Shown piece by piece: positions 6,136 to 64,000 of a stretch of DNA of 64,000 nucleotides. Origin of the DNA: Eledone cirrhosa (taxonomy: Eukaryota). The notes below the pieces were generated by a model. It searched no databases. It was not told the DNA's origin and was given only the letters and a program-made list of their open reading frames with translations. Position 1 is the stretch's first letter. Each line of letters begins with the position of its first letter. The translations under genes were made by a program, and so were the position numbers. The stretch covers positions 108,252,001-108,316,000 of the forward strand of contig OZ024742.1 in assembly GCA_964016885.1 (NCBI GenBank), written 5' to 3'.

Positions 6136-6933
6136 TATATAAAGAATTAGTATATCTACCAACATATATATACAATGTATACCTATGCAAGCAAATATAT
6201 AGGTTTTGTCGTAGTAACTTTGTTGGTAGATATACTAATTCTTTATAATTATCTCCAAATTATTTTGTTGAGCAAAAAATTGCCAAAATTACTACTATAG
6301 TTCATAGTAACAGCTTGGCTACTGTCTTCTTAGCACCCCACTCCTTACTGATTAACCTCGATGTCACGTGGTTGATTCTTTTGAATTTGCCACCGGACAA
6401 GAAGGCAATGATTTTTTCAGTGTCCTGGAATTTAGTCCCCGCTTGCTCTATTCCATCTACTGAATATATTTGTGTATAAGTTCCCTGTGTCCACGCATCG
6501 CCAGGTATCTTAGCTGAGAATGACTCCCTGGTGACGAAAAGGTTTCTCCATGTTCTACATATATTTCCCTTTCAGAAACTAATCAGTTTGAGTGAAATTT
6601 AAGTAAGTAAGCTAATTACTATAATTTTCTTATTTTACGTTTTTCATATATATATATATATATCATAAAACATGTCTATAGAATCACCAGATAAAATATA
6701 TACCATTTCCTCTCCCAATTAGCATAATTAACTATATAAAAAATCGAATAGACCAGGCTATAAGAATAAGGCTTCTATGAAAAAATCTCTAACAAATAAC
6801 CGAAACGAGCCCTTCGCGTCGGCTACGACGGAATATTTATCGAATATTTCGACAGCGTAATCGCCCAGATACAGTCAATTAAACAGAATTAGGTGTAAAA
6901 TAAACTAGGAGAAAAGAGAATACATTTATTTAC

Positions 6934-7006
6934 CTCTACCATGGTTTCGTCCGCATTTTGAGATTTCCAATATCTTCGGAAATTCGAGCCTCGAACTCTT
7001 CAGGAG
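6934..7006 (-). ncRNA. Type I hammerhead ribozyme
   Basis: Inverted copy of 7636-7708. Confidence 0.8.
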
Positions 7007-7635
7007 TTTGCTCTAATCTAGACAATAAATTTTGCAAAGTGATCGCGCCAAGAATACATTCAAAAATGGCTAAGAATCGTGACGTAGCAGCGTTTATTTT
7101 ACACCTAATTCTGTTTAATTGACTGTATCTGGGCGATTATGCTGTCGAAATATTCGATAAATATTCCGTCGTAGCCGACACGAAGGGCTCGTTTCGGTTA
7201 TTTGTTGGAGATTTCTTCATAGCAGCCTTATTCTTATAGCCTGGTCTATTCGATTTTTTATATAGTTAATTATGCTAATTGGGAGAGGAAATGGTATATA
7301 TTTTATCTGGTGATTCTATAGACATGTTTTATGATATATAGCTCTGATTATTTAATTCATTAAGTTTTCATTGAGCCACAAAGTGACCCGTTGCAAAACA
7401 CGTATATGTATATATATATATATATATATATAAACCTTTATATGTAATAATCTCCCATTAGGTTGAGATACAAATTTGGCTGTATTGTGCTGTGCTTTCT
7501 AGCAAAAAGCCACCAGCCATAAGTAACTACCACACTCCTTCCAACCTGACGCTGCTACGTCACGATTCTTAGCCATTTTTGAAATAATTCTTGGCGCGAT
7601 CACTTTGGAAAATTTATTGTCTAGATTAGAGCAAA

Positions 7636-7708
7636 CTCCTGAAGAGTCCGAGGCTCGAATTTCCGAAGATATTGGGAATCTCAAAATGCGGACGAAACCA
7701 TGGTAGAG
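7636..7708 (+). ncRNA. Type I hammerhead ribozyme
   Basis: ctc-CTGAAGA-gtccg...cggac-GAAA-CCATGG-TA-gag, then AATAAA; palindromic stem III. Confidence 0.85.
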
Positions 7709-8055
7709 GTCAATAAATGTATTCTCTTTTCTCCTAGTTTATTTTACACCTAATTCTGTTTAATTGACTGTATCTGGGCGATTACGCTGTCGAAATATTC
7801 GATAAATATTCCGTCGTAGCCGACGCGAAGGGCTCGTTTCGGTTATTTGTTAGAGATTTTTTCATAGAAGCCTTATTCTTATAGCCTGGTCTATTCGATT
7901 TTTTATATAGTTAATTATGCTAATTGGGAGAGGAAATGGTATATATTTTATCTGGTGATTCTATAGACATGTTTTATGATATATAGCTCTGATTATTTAA
8001 TTTATTAACTTTTCATTGAGCCACAAAGTGACCCGTTGCAAAACACGTATATGTA

Positions 8056-16661: not shown

Positions 16662-17131
16662 GAAGTAGAAAAACCAGGAGATCATTCTCAAGATCTCAAC
16701 AGAGACTACCCACATGGAACGGGAAAAAAACCGTAGAATAACCAGATCACTCTCAAGATCTCAAAAGAGATTACCCAAAAGAAACTGGGCGAATAAACCA
16801 TCTAAATCTGAAAGCAAACCTAGTTCATTTCCCCAGATTGTTAAAAATAATGCTAACAAGAAATGGAAAAATAATATACATAATACCATAATAGTACAAA
16901 AAACATAACGAGACCAAATATAATATCACGACCAAAAGTTCATCAAGCAAACACCAACAGGAATATAAATCCTGAACAGAGAAAAATCCATTTTTTAACG
17001 TCAGGACAACAAAAACCGGAAAAAGAAAAACTCCAGGAGGAAACACCCAAAACAACTGTACACGTAGATCCTAAAATAATTAATTTATCCAAATTAACAA
17101 CGATCTTGACAATGATCTTGACAATGATGAA

Positions 17132-18290
17132 ATGCAAATTCTGTCAAAAGGACTGAAATTCACACCGACTCCAACAGTCAACCACCAAGATCTGAAGGAG
17201 GATACCCAAGAATTCTGTCGAAAATTACGTTTTGTAGAATTCTTCGCTGATAAAAGTAATGAGAGTGATAAATCACTAGTAAAGAATAAATCAAATTTCA
17301 CTCCGCCAAAAGGAAGAAATATCTATCTCGACCAATACATTGACATCCTGTCAAATTTCCTCTTAGACGTAATACTAATGTTAGGCCAAACATTAACAAA
17401 TCAGAAATGTCTGCACTTAAATGTATACAAAATGATAAAACAATAATAATTAAACAAGCAGATAAAGGGGTGCAGTCGTTATAATGGATGCTGAATACTA
17501 CAAAGATTTGGTTGAGGAACAACTGAAAGACACAACATTCTATCATGAAATACCGTCAAATATAGACCACAACATCATGAAGAAGATCAACAACCTGGTT
17601 TCAAAATACCACAACTCACTTACTGATAAGGAAAGAGACTACATCACCAATTTTGAGCCAAAACCCAGCAACCTGTATGGCCTACCGAAAGTTCATAAGT
17701 CAAAAGAAATACAACTGGCAGTAAAAGAACAAAACAGTGTGTACATTAAATTACTACACCCAAAAGACTTAAAACTTAGACCTATTATAGCTTGTCCAAC
17801 ATGCCCTACCCACCGTCTAAGCAATTTTGTTGACATTATTTTGAAACCACTATGTATTCACATACCCAGTTTCATGATATCGACTTCCTGTCCCATCTTC
17901 CCCAAACCACGGAAACGAATTCACTTCTACTTAGTTTTGATATGGTAAGCCTTTACACCAACATTACACATGATTTAGGAATAAAGGCGGTTAAATACTG
18001 GGTGGAAAAACATAGAGAAGTGATTCCCACCAAATTCACAGCGCCATTTATATTAGACGCAGTTAAACTTATTCTGGAAAACAACACTTTCTTCTTCAAT
18101 GGAAAGAATTACAAAACGCAACATCCCATACTGCCTAGCCAGAAGAATTTGTACCATTGTAGAAGATACGAATACCAGGAACAAACGCCTAACAGAACTG
18201 AGAGAATTTTTGCTCAAACAAAAAATACCCATCTCTACTTATAGAAAATGGCATACAGCGGGCTATAAAAATACCTATACAACAACCTAG
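17132..18290 (+). pseudogene. PLE reverse transcriptase, frameshifted and internally deleted
   Basis: LSKGLKFTPTP, IIKQADKG, LYGLPKVHK, LRPIIA, SFDMVSLYTNI, ENNTFFFNGKNY, then directly NIPYCLARRI. Confidence 0.9.
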
Positions 18291-18336
18291 GACAACCCAA
18301 GGAAGAAGAAACCAAGAACTGGTCATACCATTTATA

Positions 18337-18921
18337 ATGACACACAACCCATGTCACCAGCATATCTTCAACACTGCCAAAGCAAACCTACCGATCATTG
18401 CTCAAAGTAATAAATTAAAAGGCTTAATCACAGACCGATCTTTGACTATTAGTAAAAGACAGCCGAAAAAGTTGAAGCAATTACTAACAAAAGCAAAGTT
18501 TGACCTTAACAACAAAGACCAATCATTCACTGTATCTAAATGCAATGATAGTCGATGTATCACATGTCAATCCATACACAACGGTCAATATATGAACACA
18601 AAAACTGGAAAAATATTCCCAAATGCAAATATGAACTGCAAAAGCAGAAATCTAATTTACTGCATTAAATGCCCAAATTGTGAAGAACTATATGTCGGTC
18701 AAACTCGAAATGCACTATCGGAACGTGCACGGGTGCACCGACAGCAAATCAGAGACCCAAATGTCCGTCAGATACCCCTGAGTAACCATCTAGCAACATG
18801 TGGTCAGAGAATATTTATAATATTTCCATTCTACAAATTACACAGCCCAAGTGAAATCAAGAGAAAAATCAACGAAAAGAATGTTATTGATAAATTCCAA
18901 CCCAAGCTAAATGAACAATAA
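18337..18921 (+). pseudogene. PLE GIY-YIG endonuclease with Cys/His motifs
   Basis: CNDSRCITC...NCKSRNLIYCIKCPNCEELYVGQT...RARVHR...H. Confidence 0.9.
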
Positions 18922-46864: not shown

Positions 46865-47360
46865 ATATAAGTATGTATGCGTACATACATATATGTATAA
46901 AGACGTACAGTAGTATGTATATATATATATATATATACATACATGCACACATATATATATGTACGTATGGATTCACCGAACATTTATAAAAAATGCTCGG
47001 TGTGTTTGTAAACAAACATCCCGAATTAAGCCGTACAGTGTCTAGCAACCATCGTTGCTCATTTGTTCAACACTGACAAAGGAACGCTGTACTAGTTTCA
47101 AGCTTATTAGCTATCGTCTGCAACGTATACCTTCCTGCCAGATGGTTGAACGTCTGAAAGTATATACTTTCCTTATGCATATCAACGGCTGAGCAGCCTA
47201 ATTTGCATATGGAGTGAGTTAATCGGCCGGGGTACCGAACACGATAAACGGAAAAAATGAAAGGAAATTTCATTTCTCACTCTTAGTACGGCTGTTACTT
47301 AAATATAAGTATGTATACGTACATACATATATGTATACAGACGTACAGTAGTATGTATAT
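46865..47360 (-). mobile_element. Retrozyme-like ~440-nt unit, about 1.1 copies; hammerhead 47085-47125 (CAGACGA)
   Basis: Terminal redundancy 46869/47307; inverted relative of 48145-48655. Confidence 0.75.
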
Positions 47361-47379
47361 ATATATATATATGAAAGAC

Positions 47380-47584
47380 GATCGACTTTCGTCAAATCGG
47401 ACCGAGGGAACAATGTTTCCGTTGGTCTTTCCAATTGCTAATACTATCTATCGGTCGCAACTCCAGGTAGAAGGAGCAACGTGAAATAAAGTGTCTTGCT
47501 CAAGGACATTACGCATCGCCTGGTCCAGGAATCGAACTCACAACCTTACGATTGCGAATCCAATTCTCTAACCACTCAGCCACA

Positions 47585-47586
<2 letters not shown>
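47380..47586 (-). mobile_element. tRNA-derived SINE, family C
   Basis: Reverse complement: A-box tggctgagtgg, B-box gttcgattc, tgtccttgagcaagacacttt. Confidence 0.8.
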
Positions 47587-48050
<464 letters not shown>

Positions 48051-48144
48051 GTATGGATTCACCGAACATTTATTACAATGCTCGGTGTGTTTGTAAATAA
48101 ACATCCCGAATTAAGCCGCACAGTGTCTAGCAACCATCTGGCCA

Positions 48145-48507
48145 TATTTAAGTAACAGCCGTACTAAGAGTGAGAAATGAATTTTCGTTTCATTTTTTCC
48201 GTTTATCGTTTTCGCTACCCCGGCCGATTAACTCACTCCATATGCAAATTAGGCTGCTCAGCCGTTGATATGCATAAGGAAAGTATATACTTTCAGACGT
48301 TCAACCATCTGGCAGGAAGGTATACGTTGCTGACGATAACTAATAAGCTTGAAACTAGTACAGCGTTCCTTTGTCAGTGTTGAACAAATGAGCAACGATG
48401 GTTGCTAGACACTGTACGGCTTAATTCGGGATGTCTGTTTATAAACACACTGAGCATTGTAATAAATGTTCGGTGAATCCATACGTACATATATATATGT
48501 GTGCATG

Positions 48508-53984: not shown

Positions 53985-54359
53985 TTAAGTATAGTGTACC
54001 TGTGTACTATCAAATCGGGCAACTTAGCATGGCACTACATAGGTTCTACGGCTAGGGAATTAAAAAAAAGATGGTATGTACATAGACATTCTATGAAAAA
54101 CCGTAGACTAGAGAACTCAACGATGCTGGCCAATAAAATCTGGCAGCTTAAGGACACCAACCAGGAATATGGGATTAGCTGGTCGAAATTATCGAGAGCA
54201 AGGGCCTGCAATAATGGAATGTCCCACTCCGGACTCTGCAATGTGGAGCTTCTCCTTATTTTAAAGCATGATAAAATGCTGCTTAACAACAAAATAGTAC
54301 GATCAATTTTCTGTAGGCAAAAAGCAGCTACCAAGTTCTCTAACTTCAAACCGGCATGA
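53985..54359 (+). pseudogene. PLE GIY-YIG endonuclease remnant (open frame)
   Basis: IVYLCTI...YIGSTARELKKRWYVHRHSM...TMLANKIWQLK...GLCNVE...LLN...FCRQ. Confidence 0.8.
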
Positions 54360-54599
54360 TTCGATCCAGCAATCTCAGAATTCAAGCAGAACCATCCGGG
54401 TTTTAATGTACCAGCTCCACACCATCCCACTGTTATTAGTTGTCAACTGACCAACTGGTCATTAAATCAACATCATAAATCTCCCAACCTTTCTTTCACT
54501 CTCTCTCTCTATAGCCACATCACCTCCATTAAGATAAAACAATCAGTCTGCTAGACATTAACCACCCGTATATCATCACTGCTCCGTTCACTTTTTATT

Positions 54600-54606
54600 C
54601 TCTATC

Positions 54607-54637
<31 letters not shown>

Positions 54638-54653
54638 CTATCTATCTCTCTAT
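54600..54653. repeat. (TCTA)n microsatellite
   Basis: About 11 units directly upstream of the Tx1-like element. Confidence 0.9.
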
Positions 54654-54872
54654 CAGACGTGTGTCACTTCGCGGAGAAGTTTCCGTTAATTTATGTAAGA
54701 AAAAAACGTGAGTTTTTAGTTAAATTTTATATCATTGTGTAACTTGACCACCCGTCTGGACCTTCAGGTGGTGGGTCAACTCATTTTCGCCCCCTACAGG
54801 GGCGGAATATCCATCTAAAAAAATGTTCTCCATCGAATCTTGGAAAAAATATTGTAAAATTTTGATTACGTT

Positions 54873-56785
54873 ATGAACGCTGCGTCCAACGATAATGGTG
54901 GTGGAGAGGCGGTAAGACTACAAAGCTCGCAGTCAACAACGTCTTCTTCACTAGATTCTATAGAGGTGGAAAGACAAAATGAAAATAAAAAAACGAAATC
55001 ATATCCAAACAACACACATGACACCAAACAGTTCAATGACAACAAAAATAACAGCAAAACCAATAATGATGATAAAAGCAACAATGATAACAACAACAAA
55101 GAAAAAAATAAAGACAACGCCAATAACACCAGCATCAAAGACAACAACAACACCAAGGAAAATACGGATGATACCAACATCGGTGACAACAAGAATAACA
55201 ACAACAATAACAACAATAATGACAACACCACCATTCGGATTCCACAAAGAAACCAAAAATCTCCTTTGCGGAGAAAGTTCAAAAGAAAGAACAATTGATA
55301 TATCTCGACATAACAAATGCTGAACACCTTTTAAAGGACGCTAAGAGATATGTCACCTTCGAAAAAAATGGTGCTTTCAGCATCAATTCTCCGGTAGAAA
55401 TTCGCAAGGAAACTGCTCTCAAAACGATAGTTTTTAGGACAGTTTCCAATTCTACCCGAAAACCAGTCCAATTGTCACAGAAAGATATTGAACTGGTTTT
55501 CAAAGATTCAATGAATGATATTGCATTCATTCAAAGAAGCAAACTTTTTGGGAGTATTTCGGTACTCATGAAGGATCAATTGACGGCCCAAAATTACTCT
55601 GTGTCGCCAATTGTATCCAACTTGTACACCTTTTTCCCTACATACATGGGAAAAAGGACACAAAAGATCAGAATCACAAGTGTCACACCAAAGGTGAACA
55701 TATGGTGGATACTGTGCGGCTTCATCAATTTTGATGAAGACAGAATACTGTCAGTAGGAAAGTCCCCCAGAGATGTATTCAATGGGACTAGCATTGAAGT
55801 TCTGGTGCAAATGAGCCCAGAGCGAATAGCTATGATCCCACAGCGTGTACTCATGGACGGACTCACCTACATAAACCTTTCGGTTGAGGGTAGGCGGCCT
55901 TCATGTTACCATTGCTTTAGCAGGGGTCACCTGAGGGCTTCCTGTCCTAAACTAATGAACCAAAAAAAGGCTCTTCTGCCGACACCCATCAAAACAACAC
56001 AACCACTAACACCACCACAACAACAACAACACCAACACACAAAAATAACCACAACAAACACAGTCCCACCCAACCCCACTCCACCTAAAACCACTGCAAA
56101 ATCACATACAGACACAACAGCTCCCCAAGACATACCCCTCCCCAATCACACAGACGATACAACAGATGAGGCTATCTCGCCATCACCCAGTGAAGACGAG
56201 GGAGAACCCCATCGCTCGAAAAGAAAGAAAAGACATCACAAAAGCAAAAAACCAGCAAACACTACCACAAACATACAACCACCAACACAAACAACAAAAA
56301 TATCACAAACAAAACCCCCACCTCCTGAAAACAAAATACCTACAACAAAACGAAAGCACACACAAGAACTACAGATAAAAACAAACACAACACAAGAAAA
56401 TTACACTTACACTTACATAAACACTGAAAACAAAACACTAATGGAGACCATCACGAACGACCCTTCGGTTTTCACCGAAGGGAAAACTTTCGCCCACTCT
56501 ATTAAAAATAGCAAAAAACTGAACCTAAAACTGATTAGGGTCCCTATACAAACTTATAGGTCCCTAAAAGAAACATTTGAGAAGGATGTGGGTAATTCCT
56601 GCGTGAAACCACTCAACCGCGTCCTTCTCAAATGCCTCCCCCACCCCAGACACCCCCATCCCACCAGACCCCACCCCACCAAACATCTGCATCCCCACCC
56701 CGCCGGAAACCACCACCCATCCAGACAACCCCTCCAACACCCCCATGGAAATCGTGCGGCCTGGTCCCCAGGAGGCGAAGGGTGA
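54873..56785 (+). pseudogene. ORF1 (Gag-like, CCHC zinc knuckle), one frameshift near 55233
   Basis: CYHCFSRGHLRASC; Asn-rich N-terminus is in frame in copy 2. Confidence 0.85.
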
Positions 56786-56822
56786 GTGATCTCTTTTCCT
56801 CTTTTAACTTTTCAGCACCAAC

Positions 56823-59800
56823 ATGGCCAATATAAGAGTTGGATGTGTGAACGTACGCGGCCTGGGGATGCCCTGGAAACAGGGCAAACTCTTAAACGAC
56901 CTCAGGTCGCACAGTATGGATGTGGTAGCCATTTGCGAGTCCAGGATCCACGGCGAGCAACAGCTGGCCCCCATCTTCGATGACTTTGAGATCTACGCAT
57001 CTCTCTGTCAACCGGGGGGTGGGGCGGAGTTGCCGTTTTGCTGCGGAAACACCTGGGCCTCGTAACACACAGTACATCTGGACCTGGAGGGCCGACTGGT
57101 GGTCCTAGACGTTGACGGTAGTGAAGGTGGAGCCTTCAGGCTGGTGGCCGCATATGCCCCATCCGGGACACCGCGGCCAGACTTCTTCAAACGTCTAGAG
57201 ACTTTTCTGGGAACGTCCCGCTCCTTGCTTTTAGTGTGGGACTGGAATGGAATCCTAGATGCACGTTGGGACTATGTGGGAGCATGTCCCGATAAAGGTG
57301 GGTGTAACAGCCTCAAACAGTTAATCGACCGATTTGACCTGGCCGATAGATATCGACTAGATTTTCCGACTGCGCCACTGTGGACGTGGAGTAATCGTAG
57401 CGGAACATTTAGATCGTACCTAGATAGGGTTCTAGTTAGAAATAAGGATAGGGACATGTTAAGCTGTCCACAAATGTTCATGGTTGCCTATTTAGATCAC
57501 AAAGTAGTGACCTGCATGGCCAACCTTGATAGAACCCATAGACAAGGACCCAGCTACTGGAAGCTGAACTTGTCGTTACCGACAAGCAAAGCCTACAGTA
57601 GACGGATTAGCACTTTAGTTAAACAGCACTTGACAGGGGCCATTGTCATCAACAGATGGTGGTACTCTCTCAAGAGGGCTGTTAGATTAGACTCGATAGT
57701 TTTTAGTAAAGAATTAGCGTTAGATAGAAATAGAACCGAGAACGAACTGGTAGATAAAGTAGAAGAGGCAATTAGAAGTGGCAACGTAGCCAGCGTGCTA
57801 GCAACGAGAACGGCCTTGGACCAGTTCTTCGACGCAAAGCACGAGGGCTGCGTTGTCAGAAGCAAAATACGTGCTCTGGGAAACGAGGGAGCCAAAGCTG
57901 TTAGCTGGGCCCGAGTGACGGAGGCAAAAAGTGGCAACAAGTCCACGATTCGGTCTTTGAAGGACCAAAACGGACGCGTGATACGTGAGCCGAAGCAGAT
58001 GTGTGCGGCTTTTCAGCGGCACTTTGCTCGGCTGTTCGGGGGGAACGGCGCGCCGGGAGAGGCTATGGATTTTGGTCCATACCTCGACGGCCTACCGCGA
58101 CTCTCGGACAGCGAGGCAAAGTTCTGCGTAAAGCCGATTTCAGCCACTGAAATAGGGGACGCGCTGAGCCAATGCGGCAAACGCAAATCTCCAGGTCTCG
58201 ACGGTCTACCCTACGAATTTTACGTAGCAATGCCGGACTTATTCTCCGGTCTCCAGGAAGCGGTCTACTGCAAATGGCAACAGAACGGGAGAATTCCCAG
58301 TTCTGGAACCGGGGGCGTGGTCACACTAATCAGGAAGGACGAGAATAAGGGGAATGACATAGGCAACTTCCGGCCCATAACTCTGCTAAACACAGAGTTA
58401 CAGATTTTGGCCAAGGTGTTGGCAAAGAGGCTGGCGCTTGTCGTCGAGAACCTGGTGGGAGAAGCGCAGACATGCGCAATCCCGACCAGGTCCATATACG
58501 ACAACCTCCACCTCATGCGATACATCATAGAGAGGGTAGGGTGTAAACCCGGCTTCGGTGGGGCCCTGATCAACTTGGATCAGTCTAAGGCTTTCGATAG
58601 GGTTGACCATCGTTACCTGGATGCGGTGCTCGAGGCGGCAGGCTTCGGACCCGTGTTCAGGGGCTGGATTGCTGCAATGCACAACAGCAACATCTGCTCA
58701 AGGGTCAAGGTGAACGGCTACCTCTCGGAGCCGTTCCATATTACGCGATCCATTCGACAGGGATGCCCTCTCTCCTCCCTTCTGTACGTACCGACTCTCG
58801 AGCCACTACTGCGGAAGCTGGAGTTATTGCAGGGCATCCCTCTGGAACCGGGACTGCGGAAAACGGCGTCGGCCTACGCCGACGACGTGACAGTAATGGT
58901 GTCGAGCGCCTCGCAAATCGAGGAAGTCGGCACCTTACTGAAGGAATACGAAAGTGTCACAGGAGCGAAGCTGAACCGGGACAAATCCATCGGTTTGCAA
59001 CTCGGATCGTGGAGAGGCAGACCGATGCCTTCCGATGGCGTCGTCGGACGCTGGACGGAAGGACCGGTAAAGCTGCTCGGGGTCTGATTTGGTCCGGACC
59101 TCCAGGTGGAGGTGGAGAAGAACTGGAACGAAGTGACGGCCAAGGTGTTTGCACTCACCCAGAAGTGGGCCGAGTGCAAACTATCCTTGAAAGGTCGAGC
59201 GGAGGTGGCGAACACTTTTATAGCGTCCGCCATCTACTACCGCTTGACCGTCGTGCCTTGTCCAGCCAAAACGCTCGCCAAAATGGAGCGCGCGCTCTTC
59301 CGATTCCTTTGGAAGAGGCGGGCTCCTTTGGTGAGAAGATCCATCTGCTGCCAACACCCTTCTAACGGAGGGCTGGGGATGCCGTGGTTGACGATGCGCA
59401 AACACAAGCTCAGGCTGCGGCATCTCTACGTATTCCTCACCGGACAACCGGTGTGGGCCCCGTTCGTGAGGCGAGCCTTCCCACGACTCGTCTCGCTGAC
59501 CGAGCTGCAGTCCTGCGTCAAGCAAAGAACGAGGAAAATAGGCGACTGGCACATCGAATGTGCTCAGGCGCTCACAGCCATCTGGCAGGCGGACCCGGCT
59601 ATCAGTGGAGACTCCACTTCGTCATTCTATAGAGGGTTGGTCCGCAGCAAGTGCGACGACGCGCTCGGTGAAACTCTAGGCGTAGAGGAAGATGAACTGG
59701 CCAGTCTGTTCGGTAGGACCTTCCGCCCGGGACCGATGGACAACTTCCAAAAGTCCCTGGCCTGGCAGTGCTACCGAGGAGCTCTACCAGTTCGAGACAA

Positions 59801-60263
59801 GCTCTACAGACATGGGCGCCCGGGCAGGGACCCTGCAAAAAAGATCTGTCCGAGGTATGTGCGTAACGAAGGAACCGTCGCACACGCATTCATACACTGC
59901 CCGGGCGTCACTGACCTGTGGGGCTATGTAGAACGACTATTGTCGCGGGTGGGACCAATCCAGTTGACCACGGAGTCCATTGTCATGATCAAACCGCCAC
60001 CCTCCTTCAAAAACGAAGGAGTGGCGGTTTTCCTTTGTGTGATAGCTATGGCGAAAGAGGTTGTATGGTGGACAAGGTTGAAAGGGCTGAGGTCAGACAC
60101 CTTTCTCTCCGGCCAACAATTGATTCTTTTTTTCAAATACCACTTTGGAAGAAGAGTCAGGATGGAGAGAGAGGTGCTGTACCCCAGCAAGTTTTATGAA
60201 AGGTGGGTGAAAGTGGCGAGAATGGCCCGCGTGAATGGGCCTTCTCTCTATATCAGCCTGTAG
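56823..60263 (+). pseudogene. ORF2 APE endonuclease plus RT, disrupted
   Basis: CVNVRGL, YAPS, SYLDRVL, KSPGLDGL, FRPITLLN, LDQSKAFDRV, RQGCPLS, AYADD; compensating indels 57020-57070 and TGA at 59085-59087. Confidence 0.92.
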
Positions 60264-60736
60264 GTTGAGGAAAAGAAGGAGGATAGGAAAGGAGTACAAA
60301 CTCTTCGTACTCCTGGAGATGAGGGTTGCACATTTTTTTTCGGGGGTATGTGTTACCCATATAAACTGTCTCCCTCTATTGGGGAAAATCGACTAACTTT
60401 TTAAATTCCATTTGTGATAACATTTTACACGTTTTTATTGTATGTAAACTTCCCCCTTTGTATTTGTCCCCTTCTTTTGTGCCTCTGTGGCTAATAAAGA
60501 AATATATCTATCTCTCTATCAGACGTGTGTAACTTCGCGGAGAAGTTTCCGTTAATTTATGTAAGAAAAAAACGTGAGTTTTTAGTTAAATTTTATATCA
60601 TTGTGTAACTTGACCACCCGTCTAGGCCTTCAGGTGGTGGGTCAACTCATTTTCGCCCCCACAGGGGTGGAATATCCATTTAAAAAATTTTCTCCATCGA
60701 ATCTTGGAAAAAATATTGTAAAATTTTGATTACGTT

Positions 60737-62589
60737 ATGAACGCTGCGTCCAACGATAATGGTGGTGGAGAGGCGGTAAGACTACAAAGCTCGCAGTCAA
60801 CAACGTCTTCTTCACTAGATACTATAGAGATGGAAAGACAAAATGAAAATAAAAAAACGAATTCATATCCAAACAACACAAATGACACCAAACAGCTCAA
60901 TGACAACAAAAATAACAGCAAAACCAATAATGATGATAAAAGCAACAATGATAAAAACAACAAAGAAAAAAATAAAGACAACACCAATAACACCAGCATC
61001 AAAGACAACAACAACACCAAGGAAAATACGGATGATACCAACATCGGTGACAACAAGAATAACAACAACAATAACAACAATAATGACAACACCACCAATA
61101 CGGATTCCACAAAGAAACCCAAAATCTCCTTTGCAGAGAAAGTTCAAAAGAAAGAACAATTGATATATCTCGACATAACAAATTCTGAACAACTTTTAAA
61201 GGACGCTAAGAGATATGTCACCTTCGAAAAAAATGGTGCTTTCAGCATCAATTCTCCGGTAGAAATTCGCAAGGAAACTGCTCTCAAAACGATAGTTTTT
61301 AGGACAGTTTCCAATTCTACCCGAAAACCAGTCAAATTGTCACAGAAACTTTTGGGAGTATTTCGGTACTCATGAAGGATCAATTGACGGCCCAAAATTA
61401 CTCTGTGTCGCCAATTGTATCCAACCTGTACACCTTTTTCCCTACATACATGGGAAAAAGGACACAAAAGATCAGAATCACAAGTGTCACACCAAAGGTG
61501 AACATATGGTGGATACTGTGCGGCTTCATCAATTTTGATGAAGACAGAATACTGTCAGTAGGAAAGTCCCCCAGAGATGTATTCAATGGGACTAGCATTG
61601 AAGTTCTGGTGCAAATGAGCCCAGAGCGAATAGCTATGATCCCACAGCGTGTACTCCTGGACGGACTCACCTACATAAACCGTTCGGTTGAGGGTAGGCG
61701 GCCTTCATGTTACCATTGCTTTAGCAGGGGTCACCTGAGGGCTTCCTGTCCTAAACTAATGAACCAAAAAAAGGCTCTTCTGCCGACACCCATCAAAACA
61801 ACACGACCACTAACACCACCACAACAACAACAATACCAACACACAAAAATAACCACAACAAACACAGTCCCACCCAACCCCACTCCACCTAAAACCACTG
61901 CAAAATCATATACAGACACAACAGCTCCCCAAGACATACCCCTCCCCAATCACACAGTCGATACAACAGATGAGGCTATCTCGCCATCACCCAGTGAAGA
62001 CGAGAGAGAACCCCATCGCTCGAAAAGAAAGAAAAGACATCACAAAAGCAAAAAACCAGCAAACACTACCACAAACATACAACCACCAACACAAACAACA
62101 AAAATATCACAAACAAAACCCCCACCTCCTGAAAACAAAATACCTACAACAAAACGAAAGCACACACAAGAACTACAGATAAAAACAAACACAACACAAG
62201 AAAATTACACTTACACTTACATAAACACTGAAAACAAAACACTAATGGAGACCATCACGAACGACCCTTCGGTTTTCACCGAAGGGAAAACTTTCGCCCA
62301 CTCTATTAAAAATAGCAAAAAACTGAACCTAAAACTGATTAGGGTCCCTATACAAACTTATAGGTCCCTAAAAGAAACATTTGAGAAGGATGTGGGTAAT
62401 TCCTGCGTGAAACCACTCAACCGCGTCCTTCTCAAATGCCTCCCCCACCCCAGACACCCCCATCCCACCAGACCCCACCCCACCAAACATCTGCATCCCC
62501 ACCCCGCCGGAAACCACCACCCATCCAGACAACCCCTCCAACACCCCCATGGAAATCGTGCGGCCTGGTCCCCAGGAGGCGAAGGGTGA
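60737..62589 (+). pseudogene. ORF1 copy 2 with ~59-bp frameshifting deletion near 61347
   Basis: Lacks the DIELVFKDSMNDIAFIQRS segment present in copy 1. Confidence 0.85.
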
Positions 62590-62626
62590 GTGATCTCTTT
62601 TCCTCTTTTAACTTTTCAGCACCAAC

Positions 62627-64000
62627 ATGGCCTATATAAGAGTTGGATGTGTGAACGTACGCGGCCTGGGGATGCCCTGGAAACAGGGCAAACTCTTAAA
62701 CGACCTCAGGTCGCACAGTATGGATGTGGTAGCCATTTGCGAGTCCAGGATCCACGGCGAGCGACAGCTGGCCCCCATCTTCGATGACTTTGAGATCTAC
62801 GCATCTCTCTGTCAACCGGGGGGTGGGGGTGGAGTTGCCGTTTTGCTGCGGAAACACCTGGGCCTCGTAACACAGATGGTACATCTGGACCCGGAGGGTC
62901 AACTGGTGGTCCTAGACGTTGACGGTAGTGAAGGTGGAGCCTTCAGGCTGGTGGCCGCATATGCCCCATCCGGGACACCGCGGCCAGACTTCTTCAAACG
63001 TCTAGAGATTTTTCTGGGAACGTCCCGCTCCTTGCTTTTAGTGGGGGACTGGAATGGAATCCTAGATGCACGTTGGGACTATGTGGGAGCATGTCCCGAT
63101 AAAGGGAGGTGCAACAGCCTCAAACAGTTAATCGACCGATTTGACCTGGCCGATAGATATCGACTAGATTTTTCGACTGCGCCACTGTGGACGTGGAGTA
63201 ATCGTAGCGGAACATCTAGATCGTACCTAGATAGGGTTCTAGTTAGAAATAAGGATAGGGACATGTTAAGCTGTCCACAAATGTTCATGGTTGCCTATTT
63301 AGATCACAAAGTAGTGACCTGCATGGCCAACCTTGATAGAACCCATAGACAAGGACCCAGCTACTGGAAGCTGAACTTGTCGTTACCGACAAGCAAAGCC
63401 TACAGTAGACGGATTAGCACTTTAGTTAAACAGCACTTGACAGGGGCCATTGTCAACAACAGATGGTGGTACTCTCTCAAGAGGGCAGTTAGATTAGACT
63501 CGATAGTTTTTAGTAAAGAATTAGCGTTAGATAGAAATAGAACCGAGAAGGAACTGGTAGATAAAGTAGAAGAGGCAATTAGAAGTGGCAACGTAGCCAG
63601 CGTGCTAGCAACGAGAACGGCCTTGGACCAGTTCTTCGACGCAAAGCACGAGGGCTGCGTTGTCAGAAGCAAAATACGTGCTCTGGGAAACGAGGGAGCC
63701 AAAGCTGTTAGCTGGGCCCGAGTGACGGAGGCAAAAAGTGGCAACAAGTCCACGATTCGGTCTTTGAAGGACCAAAATGGACGCGTGATACGTGAGCCGA
63801 AGCAGATGTGTGCGGCTTTTCAGCGGCACTTTGCTCGGCTGTTCGGGGGGAACGGCGCGCCGGGAGAGGCTATAGATTTCGGTCCATACCTCGACGGCCC
63901 ACCGCGACTCTCGGACAGCGAGGCAAAGTTCTGCGAAAAGCCGATTTCAGCCACTGAGATAGGGGACGCGCTGAGCCAATACCACTTTGGAAGAAGAATC
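62627..64000 (+). CDS. ORF2 copy 2: intact APE endonuclease fused in frame to C-terminus, RT deleted
   Basis: Open from ATG 62627 to window end; GDWN intact; ...DALSQ|YHFGRRI junction at about 63980. Confidence 0.75.
   Translation, partial: MAYIRVGCVNVRGLGMPWKQGKLLNDLRSHSMDVVAICESRIHGERQLAPIFDDFEIYASLCQPGGGGGVAVLLRKHLGLVTQMVHLDPEGQLVVLDVDGSEGGAFRLVAAYAPSGTPRPDFFKRLEIFLGTSRSLLLVGDWNGILDARWDYVGACPDKGRCNSLKQLIDRFDLADRYRLDFSTAPLWTWSNRSGTSRSYLDRVLVRNKDRDMLSCPQMFMVAYLDHKVVTCMANLDRTHRQGPSYWKLNLSLPTSKAYSRRISTLVKQHLTGAIVNNRWWYSLKRAVRLDSIVFSKELALDRNRTEKELVDKVEEAIRSGNVASVLATRTALDQFFDAKHEGCVVRSKIRALGNEGAKAVSWARVTEAKSGNKSTIRSLKDQNGRVIREPKQMCAAFQRHFARLFGGNGAPGEAIDFGPYLDGPPRLSDSEAKFCEKPISATEIGDALSQYHFGRRI

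Follow-up and report, generated by a model that had tools for sequence, protein, structure and literature searches.

Splice-site-like signals at the ORF boundaries of a Tx1-like LINE from Eledone cirrhosa and of a related family: possible alternative splicing to single-ORF mRNAs

In the Ty1/copia elements, with their spliced gag mRNA, and in the intron-retaining Penelope-like elements, the balance between structural and enzymatic proteins is determined by splicing, and the introns persist since it is the unspliced RNA that gets copied. The former are LTR elements and the latter a separate class, unlike the L1-clade LINE described here, which belongs to a class that is normally cis-preferring and in which a spliced full-length RNA should itself be copied in cis. 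Splice sites are treated for TART in PMC1636488. For human L1, the account of SpORF2 in PMC2896524 describes the joining of a 5' UTR donor to an acceptor near the end of ORF1, at 1837 or 1920 of L1.3, which removes ORF1 and yields a translatable ORF2-only mRNA. Termination-reinitiation is described in the pertinent passages of PMC5972666, with a 63-nt spacer in mammalian L1 and an overlapping stop-start in SART1, while the passages on Zorro3 in PMC1965478 indicate that this element requires its ORF2 ATG. Finally, Kibi, Koshi and the crocodilian Tx1 are presented in the relevant section of PMC4494074 as microsatellite-targeting Tx1 families.

The window analysed here comprises 64,000 nt of an Eledone cirrhosa assembly (contig OZ024742.1, positions 108,252,001 to 108,316,000, forward strand). 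It holds a full-length L1-clade (Tx1-like) non-LTR retrotransposon with approximate boundaries at 54657..60505 (+) and with frameshifts and a stop in its ORFs, followed head-to-tail by a second copy (60521..64000, +) that extends beyond the window end. ORF1 (54873..56785, +), frameshifted near 55232 in copy 1, consists of an N-rich head, an RRM-like and CCHC core, a T/P-rich linker and a His/Pro tail. It has no Pfam match and its tail no Atlas match; the Atlas feature matches of ORF1 are to zf-CCHC/RRM clusters (0.90-0.92) and a ZCCHC3-like cluster (0.89), and a CxxC...H...C pattern is visible in its translation. ORF2 (56823..60263, +), damaged in copy 1 by two frameshifts, one near 57020 and one near 57071, and by a stop at 59085-59087, comprises an APE endonuclease, a reverse transcriptase and a zf-RVT region, with Pfam matches to PF03372, PF00078 and, below the curated cut-off, PF13966. 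A profile built from relatives of this ORF2 detects human L1 ORF2p (1e-166), and the closest named proteins, those of Argonauta hians (66%) and Octopus bimaculoides, agree with an octopod host; none of the 10 window ORFs has an exact match in the protein collection, and a single-sequence search of the PDB returned no match. The APE, RT and Cys-rich C-terminal portions of ORF2 together with the separate RRM/CCHC ORF1 identify the element, at the level of domain architecture, as an L1-clade LINE; the label "Tx1-like" is drawn from domain layout, and the RT tree was built without named Tx1 references. An Rfam scan of window positions 54000-64000 gave nothing at gathering level (seven sub-threshold matches) and hence no known ribozyme.

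The 5' end of copy 1 is flanked by a (TCTA)n microsatellite (54601..54654, +), a candidate insertion target, and TCTATCTCTCTATCAG of this flank also stands before copy 2. The element resembles Kibi, Koshi and the crocodilian Tx1, as described in the section cited above, in being an L1-clade element with an RRM/CCHC-type ORF1 beside a pyrimidine-rich microsatellite; its flank is (TCTA)n as against (TC)n, (TTC)n or (TTYC)n in those families, possibly a previously undescribed microsatellite target, observed at a single locus whose 3' flank lies beyond the window. The TCTCTCTATCAG boundary (54601-54656 and 60506-60522 regions) itself scores as an acceptor. An AATAAA lies at the 3' end (60493..60498, +), with no poly(A) tail before copy 2. 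The second copy has an approximately 60-nt frameshifting deletion in ORF1, and after 63979 it jumps to the equivalent of about 60138, a deletion of about 2 kb of ORF2 with short microhomology (63979-64000); neither deletion has GT-AG ends, and both were rejected as spliced introns. Elsewhere in the window, 17084-18921 contains broken-up RT-like ORFs and, after them, an ORF resembling a C-terminal endonuclease, together Penelope-like by eye, and long near-perfect inverted repeats at 6657-7985 and 46992-48458 (437 nt at 98% and 315 nt at 97%) are possibly MITEs or assembly features.

The ORF1 stop, TGA at 56783-56785, forms positions 2-4 of a consensus donor, GTGAGT, at 56782, and the sequence continues through a pyrimidine tract to a TTTTCAG acceptor, delimiting a 34-nt GT-AG cassette at 56782..56815 (+). 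The sequence-only reading had recognized this spacer and proposed that its removal fuses ORF1 to ORF2; both the cassette and the frame are as it described, removal of the 34 nt in silico (phase 2) giving ...G-G-E-G-T-N-M, which runs on in the frame of the ORF2 ATG (56823). The cassette also recurs identically in copy 2 (62586..62619, +), an agreement without weight since the copies are 98.7% identical overall and show zero differences across 56202-56828. The ORF2 start (CACCAAC ATG G, 56816..56826, +) has a favourable initiation context, AACATGG, 37 nt past the ORF1 stop. Two stops in the ORF2 frame of the spacer rule out readthrough or frameshifting from ORF1 into ORF2.

Scored with a generic U2 matrix of textbook frequencies, the donor at 56782 reaches 9.68 bits and ranks first among the 283 GT dinucleotides on the sense strand of the element, while the acceptor at 56815, at 12.73 bits, ranks first among its 366 AG dinucleotides. 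The second-ranked acceptor (12.2 bits; 54777..54799, +), which was absent from the earlier list of sites, lies within a hairpin upstream of ORF1, the second of the leader, such that the two best acceptors of the element stand just before its two ATGs; the third is at the 5' boundary. GTRAGT hexamers occur only twice on the sense strand of the unit, one at the ORF1 stop and the other within the leader; their absence from ORF2 is insignificant against codon shuffles (P 0.12-0.47). An equally strong donor-acceptor pair 25-60 nt apart is missing from both strands of the remaining 54.6 kb beyond the element and from all 95,032 background tiles, 9 of which contain a pair at looser cut-offs. The acceptor taken singly is less exceptional: one as strong occurs in 122 of 4,156 pyrimidine-rich tiles (2.9%), and shuffling of the 37-nt spacer produces its equal in 0.9% of 200,000 trials.

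These figures bear on the possibility of mere coincidence, in which half of the donor comes from the stop codon and the tract from a T-rich spacer, and a scan for notable features, from which the site was in fact chosen post hoc, picks the best-looking case. A G-stop-GT arrangement is expected for about 1.2% of TRA stops, and the frame would match one time in three. Moreover, no matching donor-then-acceptor layout is seen at four distant L1-like loci in which the start of ORF2 is visible (L046, L051, L052 and L054), the ORF1 end having been inspected directly in L052 only. Against this stands a related family which had not been selected for the feature and which repeats the ORF1-stop donor, the leader donor and the 34-nt cassette (see below), and coincidence is in our view very unlikely.

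The 5' leader contains two further donors, both of which the sequence-only reading had correctly listed: GTAAGA at 54695..54700 (+; 6.6 bits), which cuts a one-codon ATG-TAA at 54693, and GTGAGT at 54708..54713 (+; 7.2 bits), which follows an A-run. A hairpin with TGACC...GGTCAA arms lies downstream (54744..54779, +), the z-score of the region 54740-54815 being -3.1 in copy 1 and -1.5 in copy 2. Because 54695 cuts the one-codon ATG-TAA, joining it in silico to 56815 makes the ORF2 ATG the first, which is true of no other donor scoring at least 4. The earlier suggestion that a leader donor joined to this acceptor could give an ORF2-only mRNA therefore holds in silico for 54695 and has a precedent in human L1. 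As in the SpORF2 account, such a joining would remove ORF1 and leave an ORF2-only mRNA; the window element differs from the arrangement described there in that its acceptor is situated within the spacer, 7 nt ahead of the ATG, and is preceded at a distance of 34 nt by a consensus donor in the ORF1 stop, and in that the boundary donors recur in a sister family. At the other end of ORF2 two weak acceptors are present (60240..60263, +), at 60256 (5.4 bits) and 60263 (7.8 bits), which together occupy ranks 8 and 15 of 366; joining 56782 to 60256 in silico adds one residue to ORF1, which then ends at the stop of ORF2 itself.

A first scan of genome contigs gave no match, and a profile search of such contigs yielded 60 loci from the best 80 of 100 confirmed stretches. 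Of these loci, 45 (L001-L044 and L048, on contigs CAXXMW0100000xx) are tandem LINE arrays that form a sister family of the window element. The record holding them is titled as a bacterial MAG, although the arrays are eukaryotic, head-to-tail and mostly intact, and they are evidently host DNA that was binned as bacterial. The units measure 6.4-6.8 kb and fall into several subfamilies that are about 93% identical in ORF2. The sister ORF2 is about 43% identical to that of the window and groups with it in the tree with support of 100/100, and the ORF1 proteins are likewise homologous (E 7e-10). Past a shared YRSLK motif the ORF1 tail has 71 residues in the window, where it is His/Pro-rich, against 44 in the sister family. 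The Tyr-Arg codons of this motif form an acceptor about 160 nt before the ORF2 ATG (L009, L017, L024, L028), scoring 7.8-13.4 bits in the sister family versus 3.8 bits at window position 56559. A 3'-terminal GTGCC(T)TCTGTG...AATAAAG is common to window 60479-60499 and sister L009:8485-8515 and is a candidate RT recognition or processing signal. Eight sister loci gave nothing at gathering level in Rfam.

At the sister junction a G|GTAAGT comes after the ORF1 stop, with the ORF2 ATG about 14 nt past the stop, in all 47 distinct junctions; the donor itself, AAG|GTAAGT, stands 13 nt upstream of that ATG in 47/47. It is the best donor in 5 of the 6 sister units scored and the second in the sixth, and by chance a GTRAGT would fall within 20 nt of a stop in about 1% of cases. 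An acceptor before ORF2 is found in none of the 47 junctions. In its place (60 of 61 overlapping-locus matches) a second ORF1-frame stop overlaps the ORF2 ATG as TGATG. Judged from these junctions of one related family, the ORF1-stop donor is conserved and the acceptor and the fusion are not; conservation of the sites in related families was a check proposed by the sequence-only reading, and the fusion is family-specific at best. Bicistronic organization, a short spacer (37 nt in the window, 14 nt with TGATG in the sister family) and an ORF2 with its own ATG are shared with L1, SART1 and Zorro3; the passages on these elements cited above describe no splice consensus at the ORF1 stop, unlike what is seen in the window element.

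A second cassette marks the end of the sister ORF2, where a GTRAGT, a pyrimidine tract and a CCTAG are present in all 43 distinct copies. The distance to the first AG is 34-40 nt, with a floor of 34 nt reached in 7 copies, and the ends are fixed while the interior varies in length and sequence. An ORF2-frame stop lies inside the donor and is the real stop in the 6 copies in which an earlier TAG is TCG; splicing at the last AG in silico places a stop in the next codon in 15/15 variants. As the sequence past the AG is also conserved, the conservation of the acceptor is inseparable from that of its flank. The same region, L009:7815-7885 and equivalents, contains a GGGTCC-TTAG/TTCG-GGACCC hairpin followed by the 34-48-nt GT-AG cassette; its TTCG variants have a UUCG-type loop, and in them ORF2 continues to the stop inside the donor.

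Leader donors were found in all 11 representative sister leaders, which are of two types with the same ORF2. Type A (5/5) has a GTAAGT donor at an A-run, matching the position of 54708 in the window, and a hairpin like that of the window; type B (6/6: L020, L021, L028, L029, L031 and L036) has a GTAAGA donor with a TTTCAG acceptor 175-197 nt downstream. The type B donor is kept at 23/23 overlapping-locus matches. In 5 of the 6 leaders its reverse complement recurs downstream, and in L028, the one copy folded, it is buried in a hairpin. Nucleotide alignment of the leaders between the families is poor, and their resemblance thus rests on motifs; the T-rich leaders also give several acceptor-like sites through composition.

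Both families therefore display one layout, namely a distant donor, an ORF, a donor at its stop, about 34 nt, and an acceptor, which in the sister family is shifted by one ORF such that the ORF skipped would be ORF1 in the window and ORF2 in the sister. On account of this shared layout, the likeliest reading is judged to be alternative splicing that yields single-ORF mRNAs while the unspliced RNA serves as template, although we propose it tentatively and with somewhat less than even confidence. The splice signals have probably been selected rather than having arisen by accident, as suggested by the sister donors, the leader donor and the ORF2-end cassette. Under alternative splicing, the window cassette would be part of a lineage-wide set of spliceosomal signals at the ORF edges of this Tx1-like LINE, and its two ends would be alternative sites rather than those of one 34-nt intron. 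The acceptor at 56815 would be joined to the leader donor at either 54695 or 54708, producing an ORF2-only mRNA, with the ORF1-stop donor competing for this acceptor and damping its use; alternatively, the ORF1-stop donor could be joined to 60256 or 60263 to give an ORF1-only mRNA with its junction at the stop. The full-length unspliced RNA would serve as the copied template and might still make ORF2p by termination-reinitiation across the 37 nt. That part of the earlier claim which set splicing against reinitiation is not supported; splicing-controlled expression of ORF2 retains the support of apparently selected signals and loses the fusion. Weighing against alternative splicing are the weak 3' acceptors, the absence of an ORF2 acceptor in the sister family and the reliance on one independent related family. 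Furthermore, L1 cis preference predicts intron-less genomic copies, which the sequence-only reading had proposed to look for and which were found at neither of the 2 window copies, none of the 47 sister junctions and none of the 43 sister ORF2-end cassettes.

The same retention of the intervals in every genomic copy would be expected if U1 snRNP bound the boundary donors without splicing, ORF2 being translated by termination-reinitiation and the tract being just a T-rich spacer or the 3' arm of a hairpin around the stop. U1 can retain RNA in the nucleus, and the binding might serve such retention of the template RNA or control of 3'-end processing in the tandem arrays. Such a role would account for donors that are conserved while acceptors are not, for the burial of the type B leader donor in a hairpin, and for an acceptor that chance matches in 2.9% of pyrimidine-rich tiles; the sister TGATG would also fit coupled translation of the kind that the passages of PMC5972666 describe for SART1 and L1. 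It does not readily explain why the sister ORF2-end cassette keeps its tract and YAG across indels down to a 34-nt floor, and the junction hairpin that it could invoke folds no better than shuffles (z -0.6 and 0.1). Nor does the window ORF2 contain any A[AT]TAAA for the ORF1-stop donor to suppress, and for that reason a plain role in silencing cryptic poly(A) sites within ORF2 is not favoured. On balance, U1 binding without splicing appears somewhat unlikely.

The fusion proposed by the sequence-only reading would require the 34 nt to be a true micro-intron, whose excision gives an ORF1-ORF2 protein while unspliced RNA gives free ORF1p. That both sites rank first and the frame fits is in its favour, as is the fact that, among donors scoring at least 4, 56782 alone fuses the ORFs in frame with 56815; the 34-nt minimum is shared by the sister cassettes, and the 71-residue His/Pro-rich tail of the window ORF1 could act as a linker. 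Yet the fusion is impossible in the sister family, with its missing acceptor and its 14-nt spacer closed by TGATG. Canonical branch-point geometry for 34 nt fits neither candidate A, one lying at -26 (56789, 8 nt into the cassette) and the other at 56807 (8 nt before the last G); the former suits a distant donor. The length is far below the 10th-percentile intron lengths of 113 and 198 nt in two molluscs, from a table in PMC13644364 that has no octopod row, and stands, as the earlier reading had cautioned, below most animal introns, yet it is above the floor of about 30 nt for animals, the relevant part of PMC4675715 giving a validated minimum of 40 nt for Drosophila and of 30 nt for human. 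Routine excision is thus disfavoured by branch-point geometry and molluscan intron sizes alike. In addition, copying of a spliced full-length RNA, itself a complete template, should remove the intron from the genomic copies, and both window copies keep the cassette.

Searches of low sensitivity through homologues of the ORF1 tail, the ORF1 core and the ORF2 N-terminus recovered no fused ORF1-ORF2 protein. The sequence upstream of the ORF2 Met in P0041/P0152 was rejected as a fusion, its N-terminal part being unlike the window ORF1 tail (best E 0.21), with a spanning alignment of E 7.9 and a cluster member that breaks frame there; P0104 and P0109, which likewise reach far upstream, are gene models from Ixodes and were excluded. 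A kinesin-like gene model of O. bimaculoides, P0114 (XP_014773926.1), is a chimera that includes an N-rich stretch and a Tx1-like ORF2 start. Its N-rich stretch joined to A-N-M-ORF2 is compatible with an acceptor of the same phase, at the level of a gene model. Taken together, these observations leave the fusion unsupported, and a 34-nt micro-intron that yields it is unlikely. A broader variant, in which the lineage keeps true micro-introns of about 34-40 nt over its ORF stops, splicing switches among ORF1p, ORF2p and the fusion, and U1-held unspliced RNA is copied in trans, is in our estimation equally doubtful; if true, it would represent an intron-retaining L1-clade element that escapes cis preference, with near-minimal introns in a long-intron animal genome.

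The literature searched, which leaves most subscription papers and the Repbase reports outside, describes no splice signals at Tx1 ORF junctions. How ORF2p is produced from the two-gene RNA of L1-clade elements, and how the ratio of ORF1p to ORF2p is set, is a long-standing question to which the usual answer is reinitiation. Conserved donors at ORF stops offer a concrete alternative to this answer, testable at the junctions named above, and, if real, introns retained by a LINE would put to the test both cis preference and how short molluscan introns can be.
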